DNA from: Candidatus Hydrogenedentota bacterium
GTDB lineage: Bacteria > Hydrogenedentota > Hydrogenedentia > Hydrogenedentales > JAJRTN01
Assembly: GCA_024278275.1 (NCBI GenBank)
Contig: JAJRTN010000039.1
Location: 21,030 to 85,029 of the forward strand
Direction: 5' to 3'
DNA length: 64,000 nucleotides
Every line of letters begins with the position of its first letter. The stretch's first letter is position 1. The notes beneath the pieces were generated by a model, which saw nothing but the letters and a program-made list of their open reading frames with translations, searched no databases and was not told the DNA's origin. Below are positions 5,021 to 42,741 of this stretch, piece after piece. Made by a program: the position numbers and the translations under genes.

Positions 5021-5046
5021 GATGCAGTTTGCTCCTTCACGCCGCC

Positions 5047-6144: not shown

Positions 6145-6156
6145 GAAACGTCTCTC

Positions 6157-8025
6157 CTATGCCGTTACGGCGGCTTCCGCTTTCGGCGTGTCATTGCGGT
6201 GCAACGGTTCGTCCACGCGGGTGCGCTTGTTAACCTCTTCCACCGTGGTAATACTCTTGAGCGCCTTCTGCCAGGCATCCTCCCGCATGGTGGTCATGCC
6301 ATCGAGACGCGCCTGGCGCCGAATGGCCACGGCGGACTGGCCCGCCATCAGCATCTGGCGAATGGCGTCGGTGGTTTGCAGCAATTCATAGGCACCCAGC
6401 CGGCCCAGGTAGCCGGTGTTGTGACAATTGTCGCAGCCGACCCCGTGGTAGAGTTTCACCTGATCCAAATCCACCGGGAAACCCAAACGTTCGATCTGCA
6501 CGGGATCGGGCTCACACACCTCTTTGCACCAGTTGCAAATGGTTCGCATCAGGCGCTGCGCCAAAATGGCCCGCACACCGGACGCCACCAGGAAGGGCTT
6601 AATGCCGATATCGATCAAACGGGTGAACGAACTGGCCGTGTCATTGGTGTGCAGCGTGGAGAACACGAGGTGACCGGTGAGGGCCGCCTTGATCGCGATC
6701 TCCGCGGTCTCAATATCTCGAATCTCACCCACCATCACGATGTCCGGGTCCTGGCGAAACATGGCGCGCAAGGCACGCCCGAAATCCCAGCCGATCTCGT
6801 GATTGATTTGCACCTGGTTGATACCGCTGAGCTGGTACTCGACCGGGTCCTCCACCGTGATGAGCTTGGTATCGGGTTTGTTCAGCGTGTGGAGGGACGC
6901 ATAGAGCGTGGTCGTCTTGCCCGAACCCGTCGGCCCCGTCACCAGCACCACGCCCGTGGCGTTGGTAAGAAGCTTCTCCCAATCACTTTGATCCTGCTCG
7001 GACATGCCCAACTGCCCCAAGCCCAAAAGCAGACCGCTCTTGTCCAGGATACGCATGACCACGCTTTCACCATAGGAGGAAGGCAGCGCGCTCACGCGAA
7101 GGTCAACCACTTTACCACTCAGATTCATCTTGATGCGGCCGTCCTGGGGAACGCGCCGTTCCGAAATGTCCATGCCCGACATCAGCTTGAGACGGGAAAT
7201 GATGGAGGCCTGGGCGCGTTTGGGCGGTGGCGGCATAAGCTGCATTACCCCGTCAATGCGGTACCGTATCTTGATGTCCATCTTCCCGGGTTCCACGTGA
7301 ATATCACTGGCCCGCAGCCGGAACGCTTCGAGGATCGTCTGGTTAATGTACTGCACCACCGGGCTGTTCGCGTCGTCCTCGTCCCCCTCCGTCATAACGC
7401 CACCGCCCGCACCGTCCTCCAGGTCCATCGCATCCATGCTGATGCTGCTCATGCTGATGTCACTGGCGCTCATGCTGCCCATACTCAATGAACTGTCGCC
7501 CAGACTCAAATTCGACATGCTGCTCAGGGAGCTTACGCTGCTGGCGCTGCTCGCCGAGGAAAGCATGGTCTCCACCGTGTTGTCCTGCAGGTTGTAGTAA
7601 TTGCCCAGCGCCGCGCGAATGTCTTCGGGGGTGGACAACACAAACTCCACGGGCCGCCCGAGAAGACGGCTCAGGTTGTCCTGGGTGTTGACATTGGTGG
7701 GATCCGCCGTGGCAACAACCAGGGTATCGCCACGCTCCTCCACCGGAATCACCCGGTAAAGCGTGGCAATACTGCCGTCCACCATGCCCCGAACCCGCTC
7801 AGGGATATCCCGTTCCGAGAGCTTCACCACCGGGATAGCTAACTGATCAGCCAACCCCTCGGTGATATGGCTCTTGCTGATGTGTCCCAGACGCACCAGG
7901 ATTTCACCGAGTTTGCGATGCCCCATGGTCGTCTGTTGCCGATGTACGGCTTCATCCAATTGCTGTTGGCTGATGATGCCGCGCTCGACCAGCCGACGCC
8001 CGAAAAGAGAGTACACGCCTTGCAT
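6157..8025 (-). CDS. pilB: PilB-type assembly ATPase with a Ser-rich low-complexity insertion between the N-terminal and ATPase domains
   Basis: 622 aa. N-terminus LFGRRLVERGIISQQQLDEAVHRQ matches the MshEN-type motif. Walker A GPTGSGKTTTLYA and C-terminal CNWC...CDNC. SD GAGAGGTG. Confidence 0.92.
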   Translation of the reverse strand: MQGVYSLFGRRLVERGIISQQQLDEAVHRQQTTMGHRKLGEILVRLGHISKSHITEGLADQLAIPVVKLSERDIPERVRGMVDGSIATLYRVIPVEERGDTLVVATADPTNVNTQDNLSRLLGRPVEFVLSTPEDIRAALGNYYNLQDNTVETMLSSASSASSVSSLSSMSNLSLGDSSLSMGSMSASDISMSSISMDAMDLEDGAGGGVMTEGDEDDANSPVVQYINQTILEAFRLRASDIHVEPGKMDIKIRYRIDGVMQLMPPPPKRAQASIISRLKLMSGMDISERRVPQDGRIKMNLSGKVVDLRVSALPSSYGESVVMRILDKSGLLLGLGQLGMSEQDQSDWEKLLTNATGVVLVTGPTGSGKTTTLYASLHTLNKPDTKLITVEDPVEYQLSGINQVQINHEIGWDFGRALRAMFRQDPDIVMVGEIRDIETAEIAIKAALTGHLVFSTLHTNDTASSFTRLIDIGIKPFLVASGVRAILAQRLMRTICNWCKEVCEPDPVQIERLGFPVDLDQVKLYHGVGCDNCHNTGYLGRLGAYELLQTTDAIRQMLMAGQSAVAIRRQARLDGMTTMREDAWQKALKSITTVEEVNKRTRVDEPLHRNDTPKAEAAVTA

Positions 8026-8630: not shown

Positions 8631-8718
8631 CTCTCCTCCCGTCATTCCCGCGAAAGCAGGGCTCCATGGGATCGGGGGGAAGCACCTTGACCTTTTCCGT
8701 GGATTCCCGCTGCGCGGG
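8631..8718. repeat. palindromic MITE-like repeat, copy A (composite: half unit plus full unit in reverse orientation)
   Basis: ccgtcattcccgcgaaagcaggg ... ccgtggattcccgctgcgcgggaatgacgg, with terminal inverted repeats cgtcattcccgcg / cgcgggaatgacg. Translated artefacts of it appear in ORFs 8587..8823 and 8642..8938. Confidence 0.7.
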
Positions 8719-8819
8719 AATGACGGAAGGGGGACGTCGGGAGGTTACCCGCCACCGGGCACCACGACGAGCCGAAACGAGACAGGCGTGCGCAAAGGAA
8801 GGCTGGTGAAGTATCCGGG

Positions 8820-9623
8820 CTAGATTGACGCCCCTGCGTTGGCGGACACGAGCTCAATCTCGAAAATGTGGGGCCAGCGTTTTCCCGTAACGAAGAGCCG
8901 GCCGTTCGTTGTGTCGTAGGCAATCCCATTGAGCACATCTGTTTGGGGCGTACGGTCTTCGGCGGCCAACAGCCCGGTCAGGTCCACCCATGACACCACG
9001 GTCCCCGTATCCGGATCAACGATGACCATGTAATCCGTTTGCCACACGTTGGCAAAAACACGGCCGTTGATGTATTCAAGTTCGTTCAGCCGGGTAACCG
9101 GGGCGTCATTACTCCGCACCTCGACACGTCTCGTTTCGGCGAGTGTCTCCGGGTCCAGGAAGCGGAGCCACGCCGTGCCATCGCTCATGATGAGTTGCTC
9201 GTCATCGTGGGTGAGGCCCCAGCCCTCGCCTTCGTAGGTGAAAGTGCGCGTCTGCTCAAGGCGGTCCCGGTCGTAGATAAACCCGGTCTTCTCCCGCCAC
9301 GTAACCTGGTAGATGCGATCACCGAAAACCGTGATGCCCTCGCCGAAAAAACTGTGTGCCAGGCTGGTTTGCTGCAACACGGCACCGCTTTCCAGGGCGA
9401 CTCGGCGGAGCGTCGAAGCGCCATAAAGCCCCGTGCCTTCAAAAAGGCCCGCATCAGTAATGGCCAGCCCCTGGGTGAAGGCGTTCGTGTCATGGGGGTA
9501 GGTGTTGACCACCGTGTAGGTATAGCGCGGTTGTTCCTCGGGAAGGTCCGGCGGGACGGGTTCGCAGGCCCCGAAACCCACCGAAAGTGACAGGCAGAAC
9601 GAAAGCATCAGCCGCGGACTCAT
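8820..9623 (-). CDS. glutaminyl-peptide cyclotransferase (plant/bacterial-type glutamine cyclotransferase), probable lipoprotein
   Basis: Full-length similarity to bacterial/plant-type glutamine cyclotransferases (beta-propeller blades, for example NGIAYDTTNGRLFVTGKRWP). Likely start MSPRLMLSFCLSLSVGFGAC (signal peptide with Cys) at 9623. Confidence 0.8.
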   Translation of the reverse strand: MSPRLMLSFCLSLSVGFGACEPVPPDLPEEQPRYTYTVVNTYPHDTNAFTQGLAITDAGLFEGTGLYGASTLRRVALESGAVLQQTSLAHSFFGEGITVFGDRIYQVTWREKTGFIYDRDRLEQTRTFTYEGEGWGLTHDDEQLIMSDGTAWLRFLDPETLAETRRVEVRSNDAPVTRLNELEYINGRVFANVWQTDYMVIVDPDTGTVVSWVDLTGLLAAEDRTPQTDVLNGIAYDTTNGRLFVTGKRWPHIFEIELVSANAGASI

Positions 9624-9776
9624 AGGACACCTTTCCCATGCGTTGAGACATGCCCAGTATACCACCGGGGACGATCACGCCGGACTCACGCAAGCTTTCC
9701 GGCAACACAAGACATGCTCCACCCCTTTTGTGGCTGGTGGATGATATCCCCCGCGGGCGAAAGCGTGCGGACCGGG

Positions 9777-11558: not shown

Positions 11559-12110
11559 CTACGTTCGAACCAGTCCCGCTTCCACCGTGTCGCGCTGTTC
11601 TTTGCCCAGCAACGTCTCCACGATGGCCAAGGCAAAGTCCATGGCCGTGCCCGGCCCCCGTGAAGTGATCACCTTGCCATCCCGTTCCACGGCCGCACCC
11701 GTGCAGGTCAGGGCCGGGTACTTGCCGCCATCAATACATCCGGGGTACCCCGTCGCCCTTTTCCCATCCAGCAGACCGGCATTGGCCAAGACACGAGGCG
11801 CGGCACAGATGGCGCCAATGAATTTCCCGGCACCGGCCATGTCTTTTAAGATGCCGGTGATGCGCGGGTCCGCTTCCAGGTTATCCGTTCCCGGCAGACC
11901 GCCCGGAAGCACCACCATGTCGAAATTACCTTCGAGGGCCTGATCCAGGCCCATATCCGGGCATATGCACACGCCATGGGCTCCCTTGACACAATCCTTC
12001 GTGAGTCCCGCGGTCACCACGTCCAAATCGGCCCGGCGAAGCACGTCAACGATAGTAATGGCCTCGATCTCTTCACAACCTTGCGCCAGGGGCACGAGCA
12101 CTTTGGGCAT
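11559..12110 (-). CDS. DJ-1/PfpI (ThiJ) family protein
   Basis: Class I glutamine amidotransferase-like fold with the nucleophile-elbow Cys (AICAAP). Start MPKVLVPLAQG at 12110 after AGGAGGA; the track ORF starts 6 codons earlier. Confidence 0.85.
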   Translation of the reverse strand: MPKVLVPLAQGCEEIEAITIVDVLRRADLDVVTAGLTKDCVKGAHGVCICPDMGLDQALEGNFDMVVLPGGLPGTDNLEADPRITGILKDMAGAGKFIGAICAAPRVLANAGLLDGKRATGYPGCIDGGKYPALTCTGAAVERDGKVITSRGPGTAMDFALAIVETLLGKEQRDTVEAGLVRT

Positions 12111-12164
12111 GACCAATCCTCCTGTCACGGCCTGCGTTCCATGTCAGTTGACAAAGCCAGTCGG

Positions 12165-12423: not shown

Positions 12424-12453
12424 CTCTTCCTCCCGTCATTCCCGCGCACGCGG
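12424..12453. repeat. palindromic MITE-like repeat, copy B
   Basis: cgtcattcccgcgcacgcgggaatccacgg, in a 510-bp intergenic region. The artefact ORF 12369..12701 translates it as SRVRGNDG. Confidence 0.7.
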
Positions 12454-12639
12454 GAATCCACGGGAAAAGGTAAATTCCCGTAAGGGACCACCCTTCTGGC
12501 CTGTGTGGCGGCGAGAGGATTTGGCGCGGCGGGGCCGCAGGAATGCGTGACGATAGGGGCGAAACGCTCGCGACAGGCATGCCCACGTCGGGCCGTGGGA
12601 ACATGCGGAAAGGGTCTTGTCCGGCCCAACGTTCCCCGT

Positions 12640-14031
12640 CTACTGTGCCTCCAGGTCGTATTTCTGGAGCCGGTAGCGAAGGGATCGTGGTGTGAGGCCA
12701 AGCATGGCGGCGGCCTTTTTCTGCGAATAGCGGCTGGCCTCCAGGGCCTGTCGGATCAGGCGTGTTTCCGTTTCTTCGATGAGTGCTTCAAGATCGATAC
12801 CTTCGGGAGGCAACGAGACGACCGCGGGTTTTTCGACGGGCACGAAATCCTGAATATTCTGGGGCAGATCGCTCATTTTAATCACGTTGTCAGAGCACAG
12901 GGCCACGGCGCGCTCCATGATGTTGCACAACTCGCGCACGTTTCCCGGCCAGGTGTAGCGTTGCAGCGCGGCCATGGCGTCGGCGGCAATATCCATGTCG
13001 CCACGGCCCATGTTGTCGGCATGCCTTCGGATAAAATGCCGCGCCAGCAGGGGAATGTCGTCGGCGCGGTCGCGGAGGGGCGGCACATGGATCGGGATGA
13101 CATTCAACCGGTAATATAAATCATTGCGAAACGTGCCCTCTTCGGCCATTTTCGCCAGGTTGCGATTGGTAGCCGAGATGATTCGCACATCCACTTTGAT
13201 CTCCGATGTGCCCCCCACGGGCGTCACCGTGCTGTTGTCCAACACACGCAGCAGCTTCACCTGGAGCATGAGGGGCATCTCGCCGATTTCATCGAGGAAA
13301 ACGGTTCCGCCGCTGGCCACGACAAAGAGCCCCTCCTTGTCTTCAATGGCCCCGGTAAAGGCCCCGCGCTTGTGTCCAAACAATTCGCTTTCGAGAAGGT
13401 TTTCCGGAATCCCGCCGCAGTTGATGGCGACAAAAGGCTTGTCTACACGGTCACTCAGGTTATGCAGCGCCCGTGCCACCAGTTCTTTGCCCGCCCCGCT
13501 GTCACCGTGAATGGCAACCGTGCTCGGCAGCTTCGCCACGCGGCGAATCATGGAGAGCACTTCCTGAAAGGCGCTGCTCTGGCCGATCATATTTTCGATC
13601 TTGGCGCTGAGCTGCTGTTGCTTGCGCATGGCCACGTTTTCGCGGACCAGGTTGCGTTGGGCGATAGCGCGTTCGACCCGAAGCCGGATCTCGTCGTTAC
13701 TCTTGAAGGGCTTCTGGATGTAGTCCGTGGCGCCCCGCTGCATGGCCTCGACGGCCGTTTCCACCGAGCAGTGGGCGGTCATCATGATGGAGGGAGTCGT
13801 GGGAGCGTGCTCTTTCAGCCAGCTCAGCAGGGTGAGCCCCGCCTCGCGCTCGCTTCCCATGCGAAGGTCGGTCAACACCACGTCGAACTGCTTCTTCTGC
13901 AAAAGCGAAACGGCTTCGTCCACGCCGGAAACCGATTCCACCACGTGGCCGGCGTTCTCCAGCACGATTTCGAGCACTTCTCGCATACCCAATTCGTCAT
14001 CGACGACGAGCACCTGATATTGCACCGCCAT
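12640..14031 (-). CDS. pilR: sigma-54-dependent two-component response regulator (REC, AAA+ sigma-54 interaction, HTH), PilR-like
   Basis: Start MAVQYQVLVVDDE at 14031. HGDSGAGKELVARALH motif and C-terminal Fis-type HTH. Adjacent to the sensor kinase and pilB/pilT. The track ORF is over-extended to 14184. Confidence 0.85.
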   Translation of the reverse strand: MAVQYQVLVVDDELGMREVLEIVLENAGHVVESVSGVDEAVSLLQKKQFDVVLTDLRMGSEREAGLTLLSWLKEHAPTTPSIMMTAHCSVETAVEAMQRGATDYIQKPFKSNDEIRLRVERAIAQRNLVRENVAMRKQQQLSAKIENMIGQSSAFQEVLSMIRRVAKLPSTVAIHGDSGAGKELVARALHNLSDRVDKPFVAINCGGIPENLLESELFGHKRGAFTGAIEDKEGLFVVASGGTVFLDEIGEMPLMLQVKLLRVLDNSTVTPVGGTSEIKVDVRIISATNRNLAKMAEEGTFRNDLYYRLNVIPIHVPPLRDRADDIPLLARHFIRRHADNMGRGDMDIAADAMAALQRYTWPGNVRELCNIMERAVALCSDNVIKMSDLPQNIQDFVPVEKPAVVSLPPEGIDLEALIEETETRLIRQALEASRYSQKKAAAMLGLTPRSLRYRLQKYDLEAQ

Positions 14032-14051
14032 GTCCCGGTTGCTCCCTGGTT

Positions 14052-15707
14052 CTATGTGTCCGGCGTCTCCGTATCGTCTCCGCCACCCACCACCCGGGGA
14101 AGGCGAACCCGCATCGAAGTGCCGCCTTCCGGCCGTGCGGCCACCTGCATGGTCCCATCGTGGGAAGTCACAATGCGGAGACAAATGGCCAGCCCCATAC
14201 CGACGCCTCGCTCTTTCTCGGTGAAAAAAGGCTCAAAAATGCGTGACACCTTGTCCGGCGGGATTCCCGGCCCCTCATCATCGAAGCGGACTTCGGCCGG
14301 ACCGGCGTCCGTGAGCAGCGAGATGGTCAAGGTGCCCTGCTCGTGCATCGCCTCAATGGCGTTCTGACCGAGGTTAAGAAAAACCTGACGCAACTGCATG
14401 CGGTCCCCCAGCACCTCGACCACGGTCTCCGGGGTCCGCGTGGTAATACGCAGATCCCGGGCATGGGCAAACTGCCGTTCAAGATGGGCGCGCACGTTGT
14501 CCACCATGGCACTGAGATTCACGATGGTGTGGCGGCGGCTGGGATCCCGCGCGAAATCCAGGAATCCCGTCACGATATCATTCAAATGGTCGGACTCACG
14601 AATGGCGATATTGGCCAAGCGCTCCACCATGGCCGGCTTCTCCGTACCCCGGCGCAATTCTTCCATCGCCCCGCGAATAGCGGCCACCGGATTGCGTATC
14701 TCATGGGCCAGGCCGGCCGTCAGCTCGCCGATTACCGCCATCCGGTCCTGCTGTTGGAGGAGCTGACGCATGTGGGCCATCTCCGTCAAGTCGGTAAACG
14801 AGGCGATGAGGCCCGTAACAGCGCCGCGTGAATCACGCAAAGGGTTGGTGGTGAGTCCCAGCAATTTGGTTTCTTGTTCACCCACGCGGGCGTGAAACTC
14901 ATAACTGGTGAAATCCTTCTGGCTGCGCAGGGCGGTCACCACGGGATTCTCGGCGCCGCTTTCCGGCATTATGATGCCTTCCACGTGACGTCCCGCCACG
15001 TTCCCTTCATCGACGCCCAGAATATGGCAGGCCGCCCGGTTCATGGCGATCACCAGTCCCTTGGTGTCGCAGATCAGGAATCCACTGCTCAGGTTGTCGA
15101 GGATCTCCCGCTGAAACTGCTTCATCCCGCTGACGCGCTGATTCCAATAGCCGCTTATGAAGGCCGTAAAGAAGAATCCAATCACGAGAATGAGAAAGTG
15201 ATACCAGTGGGTCAGGGGGTCGTCGCTCCGCGGCGTGGATACGGCGAAATGGAAAAACATGAACAACGAGGAGAGCGTGGCGAAAACAAAGCCCTGGCTG
15301 AGTCCCATGAGGACACCCGCCTCCAGGATGACCGTCACCAGTAGGAAGGTAAAGAAACTCTTTTCCGCGCCACTAAAGCTGATGGTAATGGCCACCACGC
15401 CAAAATCCACCATCATCTGCATCCAGGTGAGGGCGGGGTTGACTCCCGGCCGCCCCCGCAGCGACACCAGGTACCAGATGCCGCTGGCGCAGGCCGCCAG
15501 GTAAACCCCCGTGAGAAGGAACAGATAACGCTCCTCCGCGGCCACCAGGTGGGCGCCCGTGGCCACCACGAGCAGCAGACCCAGGCGGGCCGCGCCCACG
15601 AACCAGAGCCACGATACGGGGCCGTCGTAGGAAGGCGCCAGGAAGCCGAACGTTGCGGGAACCTTAAACGCCCCGCCCGATGATTGTAACGACGTCTTCC
15701 GGGTCAC
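14052..15707 (-). CDS. pilS: membrane sensor histidine kinase (multi-TM, PAS, HisKA, HATPase_c), PilS-like
   Basis: 551 aa, about 6 N-terminal TM helices, H-box GLAHEIRNP, G-box near the C-terminus. GTG start overlaps the upstream pilT stop (GTGA). Confidence 0.85.
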   Translation of the reverse strand: MTRKTSLQSSGGAFKVPATFGFLAPSYDGPVSWLWFVGAARLGLLLVVATGAHLVAAEERYLFLLTGVYLAACASGIWYLVSLRGRPGVNPALTWMQMMVDFGVVAITISFSGAEKSFFTFLLVTVILEAGVLMGLSQGFVFATLSSLFMFFHFAVSTPRSDDPLTHWYHFLILVIGFFFTAFISGYWNQRVSGMKQFQREILDNLSSGFLICDTKGLVIAMNRAACHILGVDEGNVAGRHVEGIIMPESGAENPVVTALRSQKDFTSYEFHARVGEQETKLLGLTTNPLRDSRGAVTGLIASFTDLTEMAHMRQLLQQQDRMAVIGELTAGLAHEIRNPVAAIRGAMEELRRGTEKPAMVERLANIAIRESDHLNDIVTGFLDFARDPSRRHTIVNLSAMVDNVRAHLERQFAHARDLRITTRTPETVVEVLGDRMQLRQVFLNLGQNAIEAMHEQGTLTISLLTDAGPAEVRFDDEGPGIPPDKVSRIFEPFFTEKERGVGMGLAICLRIVTSHDGTMQVAARPEGGTSMRVRLPRVVGGGDDTETPDT

Positions 15708-16780
15708 GCCGTTCCTTTATCGATCAGGTGTTGCAGTCCTTCGGGGTCGGAGCTGCGTTTAAAAGCCATGTCTGTGGTGATAATACCGCGCCGCATAAGG
15801 CGGTACAGCGATTGGTTCATGGTACACATTCCCTCGCCCTTTCCGATCTCGATCATGGAAGGAATCTGCTCCAGTTTTTCGGCGCGAATAAGAGAGCGGA
15901 TGGCGGGATTGGCGAGCATGACCTCCATGGCCAGCGCGCGGCCCATGCCGTCGGCACGGGGAATGAGCTGTTGCACCACGACGGCTTCCAGTACGAAAGA
16001 AAGCTGCGTCCGTACCTGATCTTGCTGCGAGGCGGGAAACACGTCGATAATACGGTTCATGGTCTGAAGGGCGTCGTTCGTGTGGAGTGTCGCAAAAGCG
16101 AGGTGGCCGGTTTCCGCCACCGTAAGCGCCGCCTGGATGGTTTCCGTATCCCGCATTTCACCGATGAGTATAACATCCGGATCCTGTCGCAGCACCCGCT
16201 TCAGGGCGTCGGAAAAGGAATTCGTGTCCGCGTGTATTTCTCGCTGATTTACCACCGCGCGGTTATGCCGATGAAGGTACTCGATGGGGTCCTCGATGGT
16301 GATAATGTGCACGTTGCGCTCGCGGTTGATCTTGTCCACGATGGCGGCCAGGGTGGTGGATTTGCCGCTGCCCGTCGGCCCGCACACCAGGACCAGTCCA
16401 ACGGGGTAGTCGGCGAATTCCGAGATCACGCGGGGCAGCCCCAGTTGCTCGAAAGAGAGGATTTCGAAAGGAATCGCCCGGAAAGCCGCCACCACCGAGC
16501 CGCGGTCACGGTAGACATTGAGGCGAAAACGGCTCAGTCCCTCGACACCGAAAGACATGTCGCATTCCCGTGTCTCCTCGAATTCGGAGATCTGCTCCTC
16601 ATTCATGACACTGTAAATGATTTCCTGCGTTTGATCCGCATTGAGCCGCTCGTACCCGGTCAGGGCCTCCAGGCCGCCGTGGATACGAATCATGGGCGGC
16701 CCCCCCACCACGATATGAAGGTCGCTCGCCCCTTCCTGGATCATCTTGGTCAGCAGTTCTTTTATCGTTGGCGTGGCCAT
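15704..16780 (-). CDS. pilT: twitching motility / retraction ATPase PilT (second copy)
   Basis: 358 aa, [21 protein letters not shown]. Confidence 0.92.
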   Translation of the reverse strand: MATPTIKELLTKMIQEGASDLHIVVGGPPMIRIHGGLEALTGYERLNADQTQEIIYSVMNEEQISEFEETRECDMSFGVEGLSRFRLNVYRDRGSVVAAFRAIPFEILSFEQLGLPRVISEFADYPVGLVLVCGPTGSGKSTTLAAIVDKINRERNVHIITIEDPIEYLHRHNRAVVNQREIHADTNSFSDALKRVLRQDPDVILIGEMRDTETIQAALTVAETGHLAFATLHTNDALQTMNRIIDVFPASQQDQVRTQLSFVLEAVVVQQLIPRADGMGRALAMEVMLANPAIRSLIRAEKLEQIPSMIEIGKGEGMCTMNQSLYRLMRRGIITTDMAFKRSSDPEGLQHLIDKGTA

Positions 16781-16830
16781 ACCCTTGTTTCCTCCCGCGT
16801 TATCGCGCGTGGCCCTGTCATCAATCGCAG

Positions 16831-16917
16831 GCGTTCACGGTCCCGTTGCGGGTGCCACACGCACCCGACGCGAAATCCCGCCAATCCACAGGTTTTCCAA
16901 GGTCGTGAACAGTTACC
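16831..16917. promoter_or_regulatory. inverted pair of CCGTTCACGG-core motifs in the pilB-pilT intergenic region
   Basis: gcgttcacgg at 16831-16840 (48-60 nt upstream of the pilT start) and gtcgtgaacagttacc at 16902-16917. Confidence 0.45.
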
Positions 16918-16918
16918 A

Positions 16919-18643
16919 TCAGTCCTCCATCGTATGCTCCAACACCTGTTCGATGGAGGACAAACCCTTGGCCGCCTTGGCCAGTGCGTTTTGGCGAAGC
17001 GACTTCATCCCGCAACGAATGGCCGCCTCCTTAATCTCGTAGCCCGTGGCGTTCTTGAGCACCAGGGGGTGAATCTCGGGCCAGTTCAGCAACACTTCCG
17101 TGGCGGCGACCCGCCCGCGATAACCCGTTTCCTTGCATTTGCCGCATCCACGCCCCCGCACGAAGGTGGGTTTCTCGATGTAATCGAACGGCTTGAACTG
17201 AATCCGGTCCAGCACGTCCTGGGGAACCATAATGGGTTCCTTACACTCGGCGCACACCCGCTTAAGCAAACGCTGGGCCGCCGCCAGGGCAACGGACGAT
17301 TGTACCAAAAAGGGTTCGATCCCCATGTCGATGAGACGGGGAAACACGCCCGGCGCGTCGTTGGTGTGCAGCGTGCTGAGCACGAGGTGTCCCGTCAGCG
17401 CCGCCTTCACGGCCACGTCCGCCGTTTCACCGTCTCGAATCTCGCCGACCATCACCACATCCGGGTCCTGGCGCAGAATCTGGCGAAGCGCCTGGGCAAA
17501 GGTAAAACCAATGGCTGACTGCACCTGGACCTGGTTCACCCCGAACAATTCATACTCGATGGGATCTTCGACCGTTACCAGATTGCTCTCAACCCGGTTC
17601 AATTCATGGAGTGCACTATAGAGCGTGGTCGTTTTACCGCTACCCGTCGGCCCCGTGAGCAGTATCATTCCGTGGGGCATTTTCAGGGCCTCGGCAAAGG
17701 CTTCCATGGGCTGAGGCTCAAATCCCAGTTTCTCCAGGTCCAGGGTCAGATTGCCTTGGTCAAGCACGCGGAGCACGATCTTCTCCCCGAACTTGGTGGG
17801 CAGAAAACCCACGCGAAAATCGATTTCACGGCCCTTGTAGCGAATACGGAACCGCCCGTCCTGGGGAAGGCGGTGTTCGTCGATACGGCAGCCCGCCAGG
17901 ATCTTGAAGCGGGCGATAATGTTGTGTTGAAGCGATTTGGGCGGGGCCTTCGCTTCTTCAAGCGTACCGTCAACGCGGTAACGGATCCGGATGAGTTTTT
18001 CAAAGGGCTCGAAATGGATGTCGCTCGCATCGCGCTCCAGGGCATTGAAGAGGATGAGCCGCGCCAGCTTTTTTACCGGCTCGTCCTCCGAACCGGCTTC
18101 CAGTTTTGACACGTCCTCAATGTCATCCTGCTCTTTCAATTCCTCCATCTTTTCCGCGTCACTATCCTGGCCGACAAGCGAATCGTACAGGTTTTCGGCC
18201 GCGTCGCCACCATAGTTTCGCTCAATGGCATCGGCCAATTCCGAGGCCACGGCGACCACCGGCTCGATGTCATAGCTGATCAGCATGCGCAGGTCGTCCA
18301 GCGCCATGATGTTCAGCGGGTCGGCCATGGCGAGGGTGAGCACGTCGCCCGTAACGGACACGGGCAGCATGAGGTACTGGCGCGCCAGGGTTTCGGGCAC
18401 TTCGGCCAAGACCTCTTTGGGAATCGAATAGTGGGCAACGCGGATATGGGGTATGCCGAGTTGCTCACTGAGGGTAATCACCAGATCTTCTTCCGAAAGA
18501 TAGCCCCTCTCCACGAGAAGACTGGGCAGACTCTGGCCCGAGCTGCGGTGAAGAGCGATGCACTCGCGCAACTGTTCCTCGGTAACAAGCTTCTGTTCGA
18601 GAAGCATGTCGGGAAGTCGTTTCCTGGGAATCCTGGTGGCCAA
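16919..18643 (-). CDS. pilB: PilB-type type IV pilus assembly ATPase (second cluster)
   Basis: 574 aa, N-terminal GspE_N-like domain, Walker A GPTGSGKTTTLYS, C-terminal CAEC...CGKC. Confidence 0.92.
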   Translation of the reverse strand: MATRIPRKRLPDMLLEQKLVTEEQLRECIALHRSSGQSLPSLLVERGYLSEEDLVITLSEQLGIPHIRVAHYSIPKEVLAEVPETLARQYLMLPVSVTGDVLTLAMADPLNIMALDDLRMLISYDIEPVVAVASELADAIERNYGGDAAENLYDSLVGQDSDAEKMEELKEQDDIEDVSKLEAGSEDEPVKKLARLILFNALERDASDIHFEPFEKLIRIRYRVDGTLEEAKAPPKSLQHNIIARFKILAGCRIDEHRLPQDGRFRIRYKGREIDFRVGFLPTKFGEKIVLRVLDQGNLTLDLEKLGFEPQPMEAFAEALKMPHGMILLTGPTGSGKTTTLYSALHELNRVESNLVTVEDPIEYELFGVNQVQVQSAIGFTFAQALRQILRQDPDVVMVGEIRDGETADVAVKAALTGHLVLSTLHTNDAPGVFPRLIDMGIEPFLVQSSVALAAAQRLLKRVCAECKEPIMVPQDVLDRIQFKPFDYIEKPTFVRGRGCGKCKETGYRGRVAATEVLLNWPEIHPLVLKNATGYEIKEAAIRCGMKSLRQNALAKAAKGLSSIEQVLEHTMED

Positions 18644-29669: not shown

Positions 29670-29700
29670 GGGGTCCCCGATGGTTCTTTCTCATTCCCAC

Positions 29701-29755
29701 GTTCCCCCGTGGGAATGCCTGTTCCCGCCTTCGCGGAAATGACGGTTGAGAGGTG
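29701..29755. repeat. palindromic MITE-like repeat, copy C (subfamily 2)
   Basis: tcattcccacgttcccccgtgggaatgcctgttcccgccttcgcggaaatgacgg, intergenic between the HAD gene and purN. Confidence 0.65.
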
Positions 29756-37912: not shown

Positions 37913-39178
37913 ATGCCGAAAGATACCTTCACCCGCGAGAACAAAGCCGCATTGCTTGACGCCGTGAACCGAACCGTCACCGAAACGGCGGTCACCGACA
38001 TTCACACCCACCTTTATGCACCGCCTTTCGGCGAGCTGCTGCTTTCCGGCGTGGATGAATTGCTCACCTACCACTACCTCATCGCCGAGTTCTTTCGTGC
38101 GTCGGACATGCCCTGCGAGGCCTTCTGGACGCTGGATAAGACCGGCCGGGCGGATGCCATCTGGCAAGTCCTGTTCATCGAACAATCGCCCCTGGGCGAG
38201 GCCTGCCGGGGCGTGCTGACGGCGTTGGACGCGCTGGGGCTCGACGTGGCCTCCCGCGACCTGGCGGCCTACCGCGCCTGGTACGCGGACCGAACACCGG
38301 AAGGGCTGATTGATACGGTGCTCGAAACCGCGCGGCTCCAGTCCGTGGTGATGACCAATGATCCCTTCGATGACCTGGAGCGGCCGGTCTGGGAGGAAGG
38401 TTACGCGGGGGATCCGCGTTTTCACGCCGCCCTGCGCATAGACCCCCTGTTGAACGATTGGGCGGGCAGCCATGGCAAACTCCAGGCCTGGGGTTACGAC
38501 GTGGACGCGGCGCTGTCCGGGAAGGCCCGGGCCGAGGTGCGGCGTTTCCTGGACGACTGGGTACGGCGCATGAAGGCGCTCTACCTGGCCGTGTCGCTCC
38601 CGCCCGAGTTCATGCTGCCCGAGGATTCGGCGCGGGCGACCCTGATTGAATCCTGCGTGCTCCCCGTGGCGCGGGATCACAACATTCCCTACGCCATGAT
38701 GGTCGGCGTGAGCCGTGGATTGAACCCGGCCCTCCGACTGGCCGGCGACGGAGTGGGCCAGGGAAGCCTGGCGCCCATCAGCTATCTTTGCGCCACCTAT
38801 CCGAAGAACAAGTTCATGACCACCTACCTCGCGCGGGAGAATCAACACGAATTGTGCGTGGTGGCGCGGAAGTTCCGCAACCTGCTCCCCTTCGGCTGCT
38901 GGTGGTTCCTGAACAACCCCAGCCTTATCGAAGAGATGACGCGCATGCGCATCGAATTGCTGGGGCCCAGCATGATCCCCCAACACTCCGACGCCCGCGT
39001 GCTGGACCAGGTGCTCTACAAGTGGGCCCACTCGCGGCGCATTATCGCCCGCGTGCTGTGTGATAAGTACAGCGACCTGGTGGATACGGGCTGGACCGTA
39101 ACCCGCGCGGAAATCACACGGGACACGGAAGCCCTCCTGGGCGGTAATTTCTGGCGCTTCCTGGAATTGGGGTTGTAG
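37913..39178 (+). CDS. glucuronate isomerase-like protein (UxaC family, amidohydrolase superfamily)
   Basis: IHTHLYAPP near the N-terminus and FGCWWFLNNPSLIEEMTRMRIELLG matching the UxaC FGSGWWFNDQ...L..LG segment. Start MPKDTF after GGAG. The track ORF is over-extended to 37706. Confidence 0.7.
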   Translation: MPKDTFTRENKAALLDAVNRTVTETAVTDIHTHLYAPPFGELLLSGVDELLTYHYLIAEFFRASDMPCEAFWTLDKTGRADAIWQVLFIEQSPLGEACRGVLTALDALGLDVASRDLAAYRAWYADRTPEGLIDTVLETARLQSVVMTNDPFDDLERPVWEEGYAGDPRFHAALRIDPLLNDWAGSHGKLQAWGYDVDAALSGKARAEVRRFLDDWVRRMKALYLAVSLPPEFMLPEDSARATLIESCVLPVARDHNIPYAMMVGVSRGLNPALRLAGDGVGQGSLAPISYLCATYPKNKFMTTYLARENQHELCVVARKFRNLLPFGCWWFLNNPSLIEEMTRMRIELLGPSMIPQHSDARVLDQVLYKWAHSRRIIARVLCDKYSDLVDTGWTVTRAEITRDTEALLGGNFWRFLELGL

Positions 39179-39302
39179 TCGGGTTTGCAGGCGCCATCCA
39201 CGGCGTGACTCCGCCATGCCGGTATTTTCCTGAATGTGGCACAGCCGCCCTCGGCTGTGGGCGGTACTCGGCCCGAACCGCCCCTGGCTGTGTCAAATTC
39301 TG

Positions 39303-39338
39303 TCTCGTTCCCACGGTCCCCCGCGGGAATGCCTGTTG
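39303..39338. repeat. palindromic MITE-like repeat, copy E (subfamily 2)
   Basis: tctcgttcccacggtcccccgcgggaatgcctgttg, intergenic between uxaC-like and menE. Confidence 0.65.
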
Positions 39339-39363
39339 TGGGCGTCCCGCTCGCGTTTCCACC

Positions 39364-40812
39364 TTACCGAAGCAGATCCCGCGCCCGTTCGATGAATGGC
39401 CGGCGCATGATCTTGCTCCCCGCCGGGGCGATATCATCGGGCCAGGGAAAAATCCGGCGCGGGATCTTGTAGCCCGGCAATGCCTCCCCGAGCGCCTTCA
39501 TCATGCGTTCCATGGTCAGTCCGCCGCCTTCCACGAAGGCCACGGGCGTGTTACCGAAGCGTCCGTGGGGAACGGGCACGACCACCGCGCGACGCACACC
39601 GGGCAGACGGCACAGGGCCCGCTCGATCTCTTCGGGCTGAATGTTCTCTCCTCCCGCGATGAATTGGTTGTCGCTGCGGCCCGTGACGATGAGCCGTCCC
39701 CGCGCATCGATCCTTCCCAAATCGCCCGTGGCGAAGTAACCGTCCCGGTCGAAAGGCCGTTCAAGCCCCTCGCGGTGATAGTAGCCGAGGAAGCGCGTGG
39801 GTCCGCCCACGAGGAGCCACCCCTCCGCGTCAATGCGCAGGCTTTCCGGGTGCAGCGGATACCCCGACGTCAGCAGCGTGTCCAGGTCCGCCCCCGGCGG
39901 CGTGGTGGCCACCTGCGACGCGGCTTCCGTAAGACCATAGGTGGTGTGAATGGGCAGACCCGCGTCATGGGCGTCACGCAGAAGTCCCTCCGGGATGGCA
40001 CTGCCCCCCAGGAGGATGGCCTTCATCCGCCGCAAGCGGTCCACGGCGGATTCTTCCTCCAAGAGGCGATGCAGTTGCGCCGCCACGAGGGATACATGGG
40101 TGACGCCTTCCAGCGCGTCGGACAGCGTCACACCCGGCGCGGGGAGAGCCACGGTTGCCCCCGCCACGAGACAGCGGAACAGCACGCCCAGCCCGGCGAC
40201 ATGAAAAAGCGGCAGCGACAGCAGCCAGGCATCCCCCGGCGCGAGGGGAATGTTTTTGTTGGAGAGCCGGGCGCTCTCGCGGAGGTTGCCGAAGCTAAGC
40301 AGCGCGGCCTTGGGCGTGCCCGTGCTGCCGGAGGTCAGGACGAGTACCGCCGGTTGGTCCTCCGGCAAGGTGACCGGCCCGGGTGCCACGGCACGCCCGT
40401 CGAAGGCGGGGTATTCTTCCATCGGTGGCTTGCAGCCCACGTCCCGGCAAATCCGCAGCACGTATTCCCCGGGGAAGGCGGGATCCAGCGGCAGGGCGAT
40501 TCCCCCGGCACGGATGATGGACAGAAGGGTCACCAGCGCTCCCACCCCATCGCCGTCATTCCCGCGAACGCGGGAATCCACGGCGTTGGATTGACTGCCT
40601 GAAGCCCGGGATGGATCCTCGCTTTCGCGGGGATGGCGGTGCGCTGAAGCGCACCCTACGGCCACCACCTCGCCGGGCGTGATGCGCGGTTCCCGCCCCT
40701 GCACCATGCCCTCCAATTGGGCGGATGTGTATTCCCCCGTGCCGGTGCGCAGCGCCACGGCATTGGGATGTTTCGCGGCCATGGCGGCCAGGGGACAGGG
40801 AACGTCACTCAT
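39364..40812 (-). CDS. menE: o-succinylbenzoate--CoA ligase (AMP-dependent synthetase) carrying an in-frame repeat-derived insertion
   Basis: 482 aa, LTSGSTGTPKAA AMP-binding motif, YGLTE, GGENIQPEEIE. Adjacent to menC and menA. Residues about 53-91 (GCASAHRHPRESEDPSRASGSQSNAVDSRVRGNDGDGVG) are encoded by repeat copy F. Confidence 0.85.
   Translation of the reverse strand: MSDVPCPLAAMAAKHPNAVALRTGTGEYTSAQLEGMVQGREPRITPGEVVAVGCASAHRHPRESEDPSRASGSQSNAVDSRVRGNDGDGVGALVTLLSIIRAGGIALPLDPAFPGEYVLRICRDVGCKPPMEEYPAFDGRAVAPGPVTLPEDQPAVLVLTSGSTGTPKAALLSFGNLRESARLSNKNIPLAPGDAWLLSLPLFHVAGLGVLFRCLVAGATVALPAPGVTLSDALEGVTHVSLVAAQLHRLLEEESAVDRLRRMKAILLGGSAIPEGLLRDAHDAGLPIHTTYGLTEAASQVATTPPGADLDTLLTSGYPLHPESLRIDAEGWLLVGGPTRFLGYYHREGLERPFDRDGYFATGDLGRIDARGRLIVTGRSDNQFIAGGENIQPEEIERALCRLPGVRRAVVVPVPHGRFGNTPVAFVEGGGLTMERMMKALGEALPGYKIPRRIFPWPDDIAPAGSKIMRRPFIERARDLLR
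40540..40656. repeat. palindromic MITE-like repeat, copy F, located inside the menE coding sequence (in frame, 117 bp)
   Basis: ccgtcattcccgcgaacgcgggaatccacggcg core at 40553-40585 followed by ...cccgggatggatcctcgctttcgcggggatgg. Same family as copies A and B. Confidence 0.7.
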
Positions 40813-40813
40813 G

Positions 40814-41863
40814 TCACACGATGCGCTCCAGCTTGCTCATATCCACCCGCCGCGCCGCGTCCGCGAGGTCTTCGATATTTACCAGGCCCGGCGCCAGGGG
40901 CAGGCGTTCCTCCAACACATCCTCCGCGAGCCAGGAATAGGTGTCCAGACCGGCGGGTTGGTCCGGGTCGAAAACGAAAGCGAGCCCCGCGGCCGCCGCC
41001 ATACCCACACCGGATTCAAAGGAGGCGCTCACGCAGAGGGGAATCTCTTCATCGATTTCCGGCATGTCCTCCAGCCGCATCATGGTGGGCTTATGCACCA
41101 GGCCTGACGCCCCCTCCAAGATATCCCTTCCGACCGGCCCGGCTTCCCGAAGTGTTTCGTCCAGCGCATAGGGAATGCCGCACTTCGTATGGAGTTCTGA
41201 AAGTCGTGTCCAGTCCGCCAACGGCTCCTCCACGTATTCAATGGGCCACTCCCGCGCTTGGTTCCAGAATGCTTCCGCTTCGTCGAATCCCCATGCCCGG
41301 TTGGCATCGATCCGCAAGTTCCAGCCCGGACCGAGATGCTTCATCACCGTGGCGACACGTCCGGCGGCAGCATCTGGTCCCGCATCACCCACTTTGAGCT
41401 TGGCCGTGCGGCAACCTTCCGGGGACTGCCCCATGGCTTGAGCCTTCGCCGCGATGGTGTCGTCATTCCCGGCGAGCAGTGCCTGCACCTGAATCACGGG
41501 GTCGTGGTCGGGGTGCATCGATCCGGCCGTATTGCCCAGTGGGTGGTAAGCGCACGTGTAGTTCCAGGTCACGCCGAACAGGGCGAAGGCCACCGACGGA
41601 GACCATTGTCCATCTTTCCGCTCCCGTGTGTATTCCTCCGAATGACACACTTCTTCCAGTTCCGCGGCGGCGGTCTCGATGTTCTCCACGCTGAAGCCCG
41701 GCAACGGCGCGGCCTCGCCCCAGCCGCTAACGCCTCTCCGATCCGTCATGCGAAGCAGCAATCCCTCACGGGTGTGGAGGGTCACTCCGGGAAGGCGCAG
41801 GGGTGCTCTGAGCGGAAGCCGGTAGCGGAAGACCGCGCAATCAAAGCCCTTCACAACAGCCAC
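40814..41863 (-). CDS. menC: o-succinylbenzoate synthase (enolase superfamily)
   Basis: 349 aa. MR/MLE-type barrel residues (KVG...IDAN...D-E) and gene context between menE and menA. Confidence 0.8.
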   Translation of the reverse strand: MAVVKGFDCAVFRYRLPLRAPLRLPGVTLHTREGLLLRMTDRRGVSGWGEAAPLPGFSVENIETAAAELEEVCHSEEYTRERKDGQWSPSVAFALFGVTWNYTCAYHPLGNTAGSMHPDHDPVIQVQALLAGNDDTIAAKAQAMGQSPEGCRTAKLKVGDAGPDAAAGRVATVMKHLGPGWNLRIDANRAWGFDEAEAFWNQAREWPIEYVEEPLADWTRLSELHTKCGIPYALDETLREAGPVGRDILEGASGLVHKPTMMRLEDMPEIDEEIPLCVSASFESGVGMAAAAGLAFVFDPDQPAGLDTYSWLAEDVLEERLPLAPGLVNIEDLADAARRVDMSKLERIV

Positions 41864-42741
41864 CCCGCCGAGAACAGCACCGCGTACAGCAAGAGGAGTT
41901 TGCCCGTTGCCGCGAGGGTGTTGTTCAGTTGTTCACCATCGGTGGAGGAAAAGACCGCGCGCAGGGCGGGGATTGCCGCCGGGACCGAGAGCGCCGCCAG
42001 CAACGCGCCTGGGTGTGTGCCGGGATACAGGCCCAGGTACAGGGGAATGGCAATGCCCGCAAGCAGAACACAAGCCAGGTATTCCACGCGGGCAAAGGTT
42101 CGGCCAAAACGTACGGCGAGCGTGCGTTTGCCGGATCTCCGGTCGCCCTCCATGTCGCGGAGGTTGTTGACCGTGAGGATGGCGGTGGACCACAGCCCCG
42201 CCGCAATACCCGCAATGACGGCGTCTTGTGTCACCATCCGGGCCTGCACGTAGTAGGTCCCCGCCACCGCCACGGGACCGAAGAAAACCAGCACGAAGAG
42301 ATCGCCCAGGCCAAGGTAGCCCAGGGGAAAGGGGCCGCCCGTGTAGAGCACGCCACAGGCAATCGACACGAGGCCGATGATTAAAATCGGCATGCCGCCG
42401 CGATGGATGAGGTAGCCCCCCGGCAGGAGCGCCAGGGCAAAGACGATGACCGTGGCGGCCAGCATGGTGCGCGGCGAGACCAGCCCCGCCTGTGTCGCCC
42501 GCAGGGGACCGACACGCTCCTCCGTGTCCGTGCCTTTCACAAAGTCGAAATAGTCGTTGGCGAAATTGGTGCCGACCTGGATCAGCAGGGCGCCCAAGAG
42601 CGCGCACAACAAGGCGGGCGCGTGAAAGGCATGGTCCACCCGTGCCATCGCGCCCCCCATGATGACAGGGGCCATCCCCGCGGCCAACGTCTTCGGCCGC
42701 GCGGCGAGAATCCAGGTTTTCAAGGTTGAAGTATGCCGCAT
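41851..42741 (-). CDS. menA: 1,4-dihydroxy-2-naphthoate polyprenyltransferase (UbiA family)
   Basis: 296 aa. UbiA-type NDYFD and YxxGxxG-like motifs, 8-9 TM helices. Overlaps the menC start by 13 nt. Confidence 0.85.
   Translation of the reverse strand: MRHTSTLKTWILAARPKTLAAGMAPVIMGGAMARVDHAFHAPALLCALLGALLIQVGTNFANDYFDFVKGTDTEERVGPLRATQAGLVSPRTMLAATVIVFALALLPGGYLIHRGGMPILIIGLVSIACGVLYTGGPFPLGYLGLGDLFVLVFFGPVAVAGTYYVQARMVTQDAVIAGIAAGLWSTAILTVNNLRDMEGDRRSGKRTLAVRFGRTFARVEYLACVLLAGIAIPLYLGLYPGTHPGALLAALSVPAAIPALRAVFSSTDGEQLNNTLAATGKLLLLYAVLFSAGWLL

Follow-up and report, generated by a model that had tools for sequence, protein, structure and literature searches.

The locus examined here is a gene for an enzyme of menaquinone synthesis that holds a palindromic repeat within its reading frame. 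The window, that is the whole stretch of 64,000 nucleotides analysed, has a GC content of 61.5% and contains an intact menA-menC-menE operon composed of the following genes.

41851..42741, minus strand: menA, DHNA polyprenyltransferase, overlapping the menC start (NF004751, 339 bits, cut-off 264)
40814..41863, minus strand: menC, o-succinylbenzoate synthase, directly upstream of menE (TIGR01927, 158.6 bits, cut-off 130.55)
39364..40812, minus strand: menE, o-succinylbenzoate--CoA ligase, 482 aa, host of the insertion (ORF list, Pfam, NCBIfam, PDB, Foldseek)

The open reading frame at 39364-40812 on the minus strand is MenE. It contains Pfam domains PF00501 and PF13193, and the closest PDB entries, both by sequence and by fold, are the MenE structures 6nj0, 5c5h and 5x8f. 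The sequence search against the PDB returned MenE entries 6nj0 and 5c5h with E values of ∼1e-51 (2.7e-51), and MenE structures ranked top when the predicted model was searched with Foldseek. The protein combines the ANL fold and the catalytic residues with a location in a men operon, and the menC-menE gene order is also found in L001 and L227. The top NCBIfam match is TIGR01923 (menE) with a score of 303.4 bits, which is under the curated cut-off of 330.15 and falls short of curated equivalog assignment. The match spans residues 149-471 only, leaving the N-terminal third outside. The insertion, together with sequence divergence, may have put MenE under this cut-off.

The first-pass annotation had proposed that a palindromic repeat of 117 bp is inserted in frame in menE. 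The in-frame insertion is confirmed, while the length was revised to a net 96 nt (32 aa), the outer codons of the longer stretch being probably native.

40546..40641, minus strand: net in-frame insertion, 96 nt, encoding HRHPRESEDPSRASGSQSNAVDSRVRGNDGDG = residues 58-89 (alignment gap and codon map against P0002)

These coordinates are one among several equivalent placements of the insertion junctions. The context of the insert in the protein is ...VVAVGCASAHRHPRESEDPSRASGSQSNAVDSRVRGNDGDGVGALVTLL. In an alignment of 34 sequences, all 33 homologues showed a gap of 32 columns at this position. The closest relative, P0002, with 59-63% identity, has 9 residues between the GEVVA and xVTLL anchors versus 41 in this MenE, a net gain here of 96 nt (32 aa). 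Both landmark motifs were locatable in 88 of the 120 best homologues, and within this set only the present MenE was a long outlier. The comparison with orthologues, proposed earlier as a check, found the insert specific to this MenE within the set. The HMMER alignment to E. coli MenE picks up again at query residue 93, just after the insert, an indirect check of the E. coli segment WNTPQT cited earlier. A frameshift error is excluded, as the sequence on either side shows homology to other MenE proteins in one frame uninterrupted by stops, and the earlier claim of an open, in-frame insert is borne out. The GC content at third codon positions is 0.62 in the insert versus 0.79 in the remainder of menE. 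The stop-free frame of the insert is strongly hydrophilic, with 62% charged plus polar residues; the peptide is rich in Ser, Arg, Asp and Gly and has few hydrophobic residues. A target-site duplication was considered and rejected: the 5-nt sequence GCGCT flanks both sides, but the 104-nt spacing misfits the net gain of 96 nt and the match is ascribed to chance. Among the homologues compared there was neither an empty-site allele nor a relative closer than P0002, and parsimony, on which both timing and direction rest, suggests a gain in this gene rather than a loss elsewhere.

The demonstrable repeat accounts for 85 nt and leaves out 11 nt of the net 96 as well as the adjoining 18-nt hairpin. 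The elements are as follows.

40554-40638, head-to-head dimer: inverted hairpin pair, the 85-nt core of the insertion (sequence, fold)
40554..40581, plus strand: left arm, CGTC-1 REP / NTS-like hairpin, CGTC-ATTCCCGC-GAAC-GCGGGAAT-CCA(C) (SRM pattern, NTS consensus, fold)
40582..40611, no strand assigned: spacer between the arms, 30 nt, unique (single in the window)
40612..40638, minus strand: right arm, inverted variant REP, TGG-ATCCTCGC-TTTC-GCGGGGAT-GGCG (sequence, fold, nhmmer E=3e-8)
40638..40655, no strand assigned: perfect 7-bp hairpin GGTGCGC-TGAA-GCGCACC abutting the right arm, encoding G-C-A-S-A-H (fold)

Repeats of the CGTC-1 REP family are described as having a CGTC tag, an 8-bp stem starting with AT, a 4-nt loop and a CCA tail (Di Nocera, De Gregorio, Rocco 2013, BMC Genomics 14:522; PMC3733652). 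The left arm carries the CGTC tag at 40554-40557, followed by an 8-bp stem with A/T in the first two positions (ATTCCCGC at 40558-40565 and GCGGGAAT at 40570-40577) that folds as a hairpin around the loop GAAC (40566-40569), and the CCA tail at 40578-40580. Judged by sequence, the left arm has all of the sequence-defined features of the family. It is identical to the NTS consensus CGTCATTCCCGCGMAVGCGGGAATCYRG in 27 of 28 positions and fits the degenerate SRM pattern, which matches at 12434-12461 and 40554-40581. The inverted right arm has a 4-nt loop as well (TTTC) and the tail TGG at 40612-40614; its tag is CGCC (40635-40638, reverse strand) and not CGTC. Relative to the left arm its stem has one compensated change, T:A to C:G, and one change of C:G to T:G; the arms are distinguished at 7 of 30 positions. 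This variant recurs in nine metagenome stretches and is accompanied in two of these by an inverted partner arm. The spacer and the 7-bp hairpin have no further copy within the window. A search with 21 nt of the spacer returned no exact match in metagenome contigs, thus providing no evidence for the whole dimer as a conserved mobile unit. The 7-bp hairpin consists either of native codons or of part of the insert; P0002 has PASAC at the position aligned with its GCASAH codons. Rfam identified no family in 39000-42000.

Further repeats were located in the window at the following positions.

8640..8726, no strand assigned: intergenic head-to-head REP dimer, between ORFs 6157-8025 and 8820-9665 (repeat search, nhmmer)
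12434..12461, plus strand: single canonical CGTC-1 / NTS-like hairpin, between ORFs 11559-12128 and 12640-14184 (SRM pattern)
29722..29745, minus strand: degenerate CGTC arm, in a hybrid pair with a second hairpin type at 29684-29723 (nhmmer E=5e-5)
39298..39337, no strand assigned: second hairpin family, CGTTCCCACGG-TCCC-CCGCGGGAATG, 27-66 nt downstream of the menE stop (repeat search)

Altogether six CGTC-type arms are present at four loci in the 64 kb, and three of the loci are intergenic. The dimer at 8640..8726 is composed of a degenerate left arm (8640-8667, plus strand) and a good right arm (8697-8726, minus strand). As in the pair inside menE at 40554-40638, its CGTC ends face outward, and the spacers of the two dimers are ∼29-30 nt. 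The hairpin at 39298..39337 is 90% identical to that at 29684-29723. A 25-nt core with up to 3 mismatches matched twice in the window versus none in 100 shuffles, and allowing 4 mismatches to the NTS consensus gave three matches versus none in 100 simulations, results excluding chance for the repeat copies. The shared repeat is confined to the arms, ∼30-40 nt, and the spacer sequence differs between both dimers. Thus, the earlier statement that the inserted stretch corresponds exactly to one copy of a window-wide repeat stands for the arms, which recur, and not for the unique spacer, the repeat part being 85 nt.

Outside the window, the exact 31-nt hairpin was found in genome contigs of many bacterial phyla among the matches listed, and a looser hairpin pattern in more than 120 stretches of viral contigs, again among the matches listed, so common is the motif. 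On the matches listed the dRS3/NTS/RPE-6 hairpin is nearly pan-bacterial. A survey for REPs within long reading frames covered 105 fetched loci, from which 8 candidates were taken to Pfam. An HrpA-like helicase of Luteimonas is an independent and convincing case of internal REP insertion. A UvrD candidate was rejected, the REP lying upstream of the first domain, and the remaining candidates, in which Pfam recognised no domain, are probably spurious ORFs of GC-rich sequence. As a separate observation, P0032, P0035 and P0042 contain an unrelated palindromic dimer of the CCCCCCCGCAAGCGGGGGGG type in frame in MenE at another site and in another clade.

The pair in menE is in accord with the CGTC REPs as catalogued in 2013, which occur in many dispersed, mostly intergenic copies, mainly as HH dimers whose tags face outward and whose arms lie 20-100 bp apart, and which were reported in 5 phyla, chiefly Alphaproteobacteria (PMC3733652). 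The same source lists in-frame intragenic dimers of CGTC and GTAG REPs encoding 20-30 aa in several species, and states that RAYT genes are not associated with CGTC REPs (PMC3733652). The likeness extends to tag, stem, loop, tail, outward dimer and the occasional in-frame dimer, and within the window three of the four loci are intergenic; relative to what is accessible of that catalogue, the differences are menE as host gene, a host in the Hydrogenedentota and the CGCC tag on the second arm. The RPE half of the earlier comparison with Rickettsia RPEs and Neisseria Correia elements is upheld, CGTC-1 being equated with Rickettsia RPE-6 and Neisseria dRS3, and RPE-4 with CGTC-4 (PMC3733652). The Correia half is an analogy to a different Neisseria element. 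The left arm resembles Neisseria dRS3/NTS in consensus and SRM pattern, whereas the Neisseria copies lie in large intergenic arrays, ∼2% being intragenic, and no ssnA was found in the 64-kb window. As with Rickettsia RPEs, a palindromic repeat lies in frame and free of stops in a housekeeping gene and adds a peptide; Rickettsia is, however, an obligate intracellular alphaproteobacterium, whereas the menE host belongs to a free-living, GC-rich lineage. The classic RPE-1, at about 100-150 bp, exceeds the menE insert in length. REPINs or BIMEs, which are RAYT-mobilised and of the GTAG type, also consist of an inverted REP pair of ∼85-100 nt forming one long or two short hairpins. The combination of a GTAG tag with a RAYT Y1 transposase gene flanked by REPs does not apply here, the menE tag being CGTC, and the spacer is unconserved between the two dimers of the window. 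Correia elements, which are MITEs, are likewise small non-autonomous inverted-repeat elements in or next to genes. They belong to another sequence family, and their 26-nt terminal inverted repeats and TA target duplication are absent from the menE insert.

The location of the insert in the enzyme was evaluated with an AlphaFold model. The mean pLDDT of MenE was 87 and fell under 50 for residues 62-85 only, which are flanked by a strand and a helix both modelled with confidence, so that modelling places the insert in a loop as the first-pass annotation had expected. The insertion site lies between strand 49-53 and helix 90-101, in the interval that separates adenylation core motifs A1 and A2. 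The large N-terminal domain is predicted to carry the 32 added residues as a disordered loop, and pLDDT together with secondary structure suggests that this loop is surface exposed. All 66 invariant alignment columns are intact, including R213, D364, R379 and K467. Read from the alignment, these residues would correspond to R195, D336, R350 and K437 of E. coli MenE, which are ligand contacts (PMC6653581). The insert is distant in sequence from the ligand-binding residues. Since the invariant residues are intact, the enzyme is probably functional, and the insert-bearing MenE most likely still makes o-succinylbenzoyl-CoA.

The explanation we consider probable is that a head-to-head pair of CGTC-type REPs, with one canonical CGTC-1 arm (dRS3/NTS, RPE-6 type) and one variant arm, was inserted into loop codons near the N-terminus of MenE and is carried as a tolerated disordered loop. 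The 96-nt stop-free frame would have kept menE open while adding 32 residues, and this menE copy would be the survivor of the spread of a selfish repeat and not an adaptation. During such movement the hairpin would probably have been recognised as single-stranded DNA. Activity on this hairpin motif has, to our knowledge, been demonstrated for one enzyme only, the small GIY-YIG nuclease SsnA. A less likely explanation is that MenE was inactivated or crippled by the insertion, the gene being a recent pseudogene still free of stops, with a second ligase encoded elsewhere or menaquinone synthesis lost. The TIGR01923 score under the cut-off with the N-terminal third unaligned would fit this explanation, as would the persistence of long ORFs by chance at 61.5% GC, and Di Nocera et al. 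hold that the activity of REP-decorated proteins cannot be judged (PMC3733652). It is opposed by the retention of 66 of 66 invariant columns across 482 aa, a model that is confident on either side of the insert, and the neighbouring menA and menC, both of which exceed their curated cut-offs. Further, no second ANL paralogue was found within the 64-kb window, and the divergence between the arms suggests that the insert may not be new, unless the dimer was a heterodimer from the start. Tolerance of the loop is thus favoured over impairment, a preference resting on the conserved residues and the confidence of the model outside the insert.

It is also conceivable, though with little probability, that the hairpins are kept in menE for a role at the level of DNA or RNA, the coding effect being a tolerated by-product. 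The hairpins could be a site where an SsnA-type single-strand nuclease modulates how incoming DNA recombines, or an element that affects mRNA stability or pauses translation in the operon's last gene. SsnA, encoded by a small single-domain GIY-YIG (cd10448) gene that is typically flanked by repeats, cleaves NTS repeats in single-stranded DNA, and a role of NTS in natural transformation was shown only in N. meningitidis (Nat Commun 2025;16:2388; PMC11893778). The left arm fits the cleaved consensus, the stem of the right arm is preserved by a compensated change, and a second REP-like hairpin lies just past the menE stop codon. Nevertheless, no GIY-YIG (ssnA-like) ORF was detected when all six frames of the window were searched for the motif. 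Only ∼2% of Neisseria NTS copies are intragenic (PMC11893778), so that copies within genes look incidental, and the variant arm with the compensated change belongs to a subfamily that already exists elsewhere, so that it is no evidence of selection at menE. Equally hard to credit is that MenE of Hydrogenedentota is a recurrent landing site with co-opted repeat-encoded loops; were the two MenE dimers not a coincidence, the hairpins could mark the men operon for an Ssn-like nuclease or recombination control, or the disordered loops could have gained a role such as partner or membrane docking. Least probable of all is that the segment arose during assembly of the metagenome-derived genome, where a repeated k-mer would have led to a chimeric path. 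The contig is of metagenome type at NCBI and carries a repeated 31-nt arm, repeats being a classic cause of misassembly, but the unique spacer and the non-identical second arm are not products of repeat collapse, and the segment, whose length is divisible by three, contains no stop and joins collinear menE sequence of unchanged frame on both sides.

Tolerated insertion of a REP pair, the preferred explanation, is a documented phenomenon, and describing it as notable, as had been done earlier, was an overstatement given the in-frame intragenic REP dimers catalogued in 2013 (PMC3733652). Likewise no new question is raised, the tolerance of repeat-encoded loops being documented for Rickettsia RPEs and in several other species (Di Nocera et al. 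2013, PMC3733652). What is new is the host gene menE and the phylum, Hydrogenedentota not being among the lineages named in the accessible part of the REP literature (PMC3733652). The locus provides a clean and well-delimited CGTC-type REP dimer read in frame within a core metabolic enzyme. If the insert lowers the score, annotation pipelines would assign MenE only to the AMP-binding proteins in general and may score the organism as lacking a complete menaquinone pathway.

The insertion resides in menE, and the gene order menA-menC-menE is also present in relatives. The genes concerned are as follows.

39364-40812, minus strand: menE ORF, 482 aa, with region 40200-41000 inside the ORF
40814-41863: menC, directly upstream of menE, above the curated cut-off
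41851-42741: menA, upstream of menE beyond menC, above the curated cut-off

The menE product contained AMP-binding and AMP-binding_C domains (Pfam), and its top NCBIfam family was the menE equivalog TIGR01923. The best PDB sequence matches were E. coli MenE (6nj0 and 5c5h, E ~1e-51) followed by MenE of B. subtilis and S. aureus, and Foldseek with an AlphaFold model returned the same entries as top matches. Agreement among Pfam, NCBIfam, PDB, Foldseek and the gene neighbours identifies the ORF as o-succinylbenzoate--CoA ligase. No second ANL paralogue was found within the 64-kb window.

The first-pass annotation had placed a repeat copy in frame inside menE at 40540-40656, a 117-nt interval adding about 33 residues. 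Alignment with orthologues, which it had proposed as a check, confirmed the in-frame insertion and corrected its boundaries: in an alignment of 34 sequences, 33/33 homologues had a 32-column gap opposite VVAVGCASA-HRHPRESEDPSRASGSQSNAVDSRVRGNDGDG-VGALVTLL of the window MenE. Between the anchors GEVVA and xVTLL there are 41 residues in the window MenE and 9 in P0002, the nearest relative (59-63% identity), a net gain of 32 aa or 96 nt, so that the earlier interval was slightly too wide. Its outer codons, GCASA and VG, which align with PASAC..LE in P0002, are probably native. The spacing from an N-terminal Cys motif to the A2 motif gave a second measure of length; both motifs were found in 88 of the best 120 homologues, and the spacing was 68 residues in 68/88 and 95 in the window MenE only. 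A sequencing frameshift, raised earlier as an alternative, is excluded since both flanks are homologous to and collinear with other MenE proteins in one frame.

The inserted DNA comprises two hairpin arms and a spacer, given here as plus-strand sequence.

40554-40581: left arm, CGTC-ATTCCCGC-GAAC-GCGGGAAT-CCA(C)
40582-40611: spacer, 30 nt, unique
40612-40638: right arm, inverted, TGG-ATCCTCGC-TTTC-GCGGGGAT-GGCG

Compared with the reverse-complemented left arm, the right arm has 7/30 positions changed but the stem kept; at stem position 3 both partners have changed (T:A to C:G), and position 5 is now T:G. Separate hairpins were predicted for the insert as single-stranded DNA (z = -3.3 vs shuffles). 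The spacer occurs just once in the window, and the metagenome collection contained no exact match to it. Since the arms alone are repeated, the proposal that a 117-bp repeat copy encodes the extra segment exactly must be narrowed: the evidence shows a short hairpin repeat in two inverted copies, an 85-nt unit, and approximately 11 inserted nt lie beyond this dimer. Directly next to the right arm, at 40638-40655, is a perfect hairpin with a 7-bp stem (GGTGCGC-TGAA-GCGCACC); it encodes G-C-A-S-A-H, opposite which P0002 reads PASAC. This hairpin, with no further copy in the window, may be native codons palindromic by chance or part of the inserted DNA.

In a survey of prokaryotic REPs, Di Nocera et al. 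(2013, PMC3733652) distinguished two superfamilies, one tagged GTAG and the other CGTC. There, CGTC-1 repeats have a CGTC tag, an 8-bp stem with A/T pairs first, a 4-nt loop and a CCA tail, and occur mostly as dimers with the tags outside (HH) and spacers of 20-100 bp. The left arm has every one of these features, including membership of an HH dimer, and the window's two dimers are both HH. The survey equates CGTC-1 with Neisseria dRS3 and Rickettsia RPE-6, so that the likeness to Rickettsia RPEs drawn in the first-pass annotation is a family relationship; the comparison with Correia elements stands as analogy only. The longer Neisseria repeat was redefined as NTS (CGTCATTCCCGCGMAVGCGGGAATCYRG) in a 2025 paper (PMC11893778), and the left arm matched it at 27/28 positions and also fitted the degenerate SRM pattern.

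The right-arm variant was also found in 9 metagenome stretches, in at least 2 of which (L229 and L231, unrelated contigs) an inverted partner arm lies 25-35 nt away. The variant REP of these head-to-head dimers (~650-765 in L229) is the same as the menE right arm, with stem ATCCTCGC/GCGAGGAT or GCGGGGAT and the tag CGCC replacing CGTC. Recurrence of the variant elsewhere, also as dimers, points to a pre-existing variant subfamily, and on these sequence comparisons the menE element is judged a heterodimer and not merely a decayed homodimer.

A profile built from the arms found six arms in total over the window and no further convincing match. Those outside menE occupy three loci, all intergenic, one of them adjoining a second hairpin family.

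8640-8667: degenerate arm copy, intergenic
8697-8726, minus strand: left-arm copy, intergenic
12434-12461: left-arm copy, intergenic
29722-29745, minus strand: degenerate arm copy, intergenic
29684-29723 and 39298-39337: second hairpin family, CATTCCCACG-N6-CGTGGGAATG, copies 90% identical

With up to 3 mismatches the 25-nt core matched twice in the window vs 0 in 100 shuffles, and the NTS consensus, when up to 4 mismatches were allowed, matched three times vs 0 in 100 simulations; a chance origin of the recurrence is excluded. At 29684-29745 a hairpin of the second family and a degenerate CGTC arm together form a hybrid pair. The 39298-39337 copy is found 27-66 nt past the menE stop codon, and menE thus has one REP-type element within it and another just beyond its end. 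Elsewhere, several paralogous genes (3669-7167 and 16139-17884), putatively for PilB/PilT-type secretion ATPases as judged from Walker-type sequences in the repeats and the translation of one ORF, account for repeat families D1-D5 and D8, which are ordinary gene paralogy, not mobile repeats.

Two of the three coding-strand frames of the insert are open. The frame in use encodes 34% charged, 28% polar and 12% hydrophobic residues, whereas the remainder of the protein is 45% hydrophobic. GC3 was 0.62 vs 0.79 across the remaining gene, as expected for DNA not evolved as coding sequence. Structure modelling had also been proposed, and an AlphaFold model based on the alignment of 34 sequences (mean pLDDT 87, pTM 0.84) fell below pLDDT 50 solely at residues 62-85, within the insert, between a confident strand (49-53) and helix (90-101). 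The site is in the large N-terminal domain (residues 1-351), between core motifs A1 (xTYxEL, here EYTSAQL) and A2 (LKAGxAxxPLxP, here IRAGGIALPLDP) of the usual adenylation-domain nomenclature; the P-loop TSGSTGxPK starts at residue 160. The insert corresponds approximately to E. coli MenE residues 58-65, as the HMMER alignment resumes at residue 66. Ligand contacts of E. coli MenE are R195, S222, G268, T277, D336, R350 and K437 (PMC6653581). All invariant alignment columns (66/66) are kept in the window MenE, including R213, D364, R379 and K467, which as read from the HMMER alignment would be R195, D336, R350 and K437. The predicted disorder, secondary structure and sequence position suggest a loop that is on the surface and distant from the active site.

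These results are best explained, with good probability, by a selfish CGTC-type REP dimer that landed in loop codons of a gene that survived. The dimer would have inserted with a length by chance a multiple of three and without a stop in the frame used, encoding a hydrophilic disordered peptide, and survival of the gene would follow from these properties. SsnA, a 94-aa GIY-YIG nuclease, is the sole enzyme shown to act on the CGTC/NTS motif; it cleaves single-stranded DNA near NTS, and the repeat often flanks ssnA in several phyla (PMC11893778). A motif search found no ORF with a GIY-YIG motif in the 64-kb window, and a dedicated transposase for CGTC REPs is given as not known in PMC3733652.

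Impairment of MenE by the insertion would fit the TIGR01923 score, 303 where the cut-off is 330, the sole point in its support, and is considered unlikely. An assembly artefact is highly improbable, since the spacer is unique, the arms are non-identical and the length is exactly in frame. That the hairpins are kept for some function as DNA or RNA is considered very unlikely. Insertion of a selfish dimer into a tolerant loop is the reading preferred here.

Intragenic GTAG and CGTC REPs are reported by Di Nocera et al. (PMC3733652) in several species, more than half as dimers or groups encoding 20-30 aa and many in genes for DNA repair, helicases and tRNA enzymes; the top intragenic CGTC count is in R. 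conorii, representing RPE-4 and RPE-6. In N. meningitidis ~2% of NTS copies are intragenic (PMC11893778). REPs lying in long ORFs were sought in 105 loci from the genome matches listed for the 31-nt hairpin, and 8 candidates put to Pfam included one convincing independent case, a HrpA-like DEAH helicase of at least 1114 aa in a Luteimonas sp. MAG (L166:4658-7999, JAKFFJ010000016.1) with a CGTC-1 hairpin cluster read in frame (...SSFPRDSSFPRDSSFPRRRESSDSPAVDSRLRGNDG...) between HA2_C and OB_NTP_bind. The MenE homologues P0032, P0035 and P0042, from a sister Hydrogenedentota clade, also contain a palindromic dimer in frame, but one of another kind and at another site, in the stretch separating the A2 region from the P-loop (L227:10346-10582 of GCA_016791475.1 for P0032; L228:798-1058 for P0042). 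Its arms, CCCCCCCGCAAGCGGGGGGG and the complement, are separated by ~70 nt and are translated as TPPTPPQAGG...PPACGGAGG. The spacers of P0032 and P0042 have diverged, and 21.5 kb and 10 kb of flanking sequence contained no further copy.

The exact 31-nt hairpin CCGTCATTCCCGCG-N2-3-GCGGGAATCCACGG was found in a genome scan in many phyla, among the matches listed: Pseudomonadota (Xanthomonadales, Burkholderiales, Alphaproteobacteria), Planctomycetota, Chloroflexota (Dehalococcoidia), Actinomycetota (Rubrobacter-type), Acidobacteriota (Terriglobia), Gemmatimonadota, Poribacteria, Armatimonadota and others; viral contigs among the matches listed carry a looser form. This distribution is broader than the five phyla given for CGTC repeats in the 2013 survey. 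The in-frame REP insertion in menE is real and, in view of the catalogued intragenic dimers and the Luteimonas case, adds to a phenomenon already documented. Relative to the cases named in the 2013 survey, menE is a new host gene for an intragenic CGTC REP and Hydrogenedentota, judged from the named homologues, probably a new phylum.
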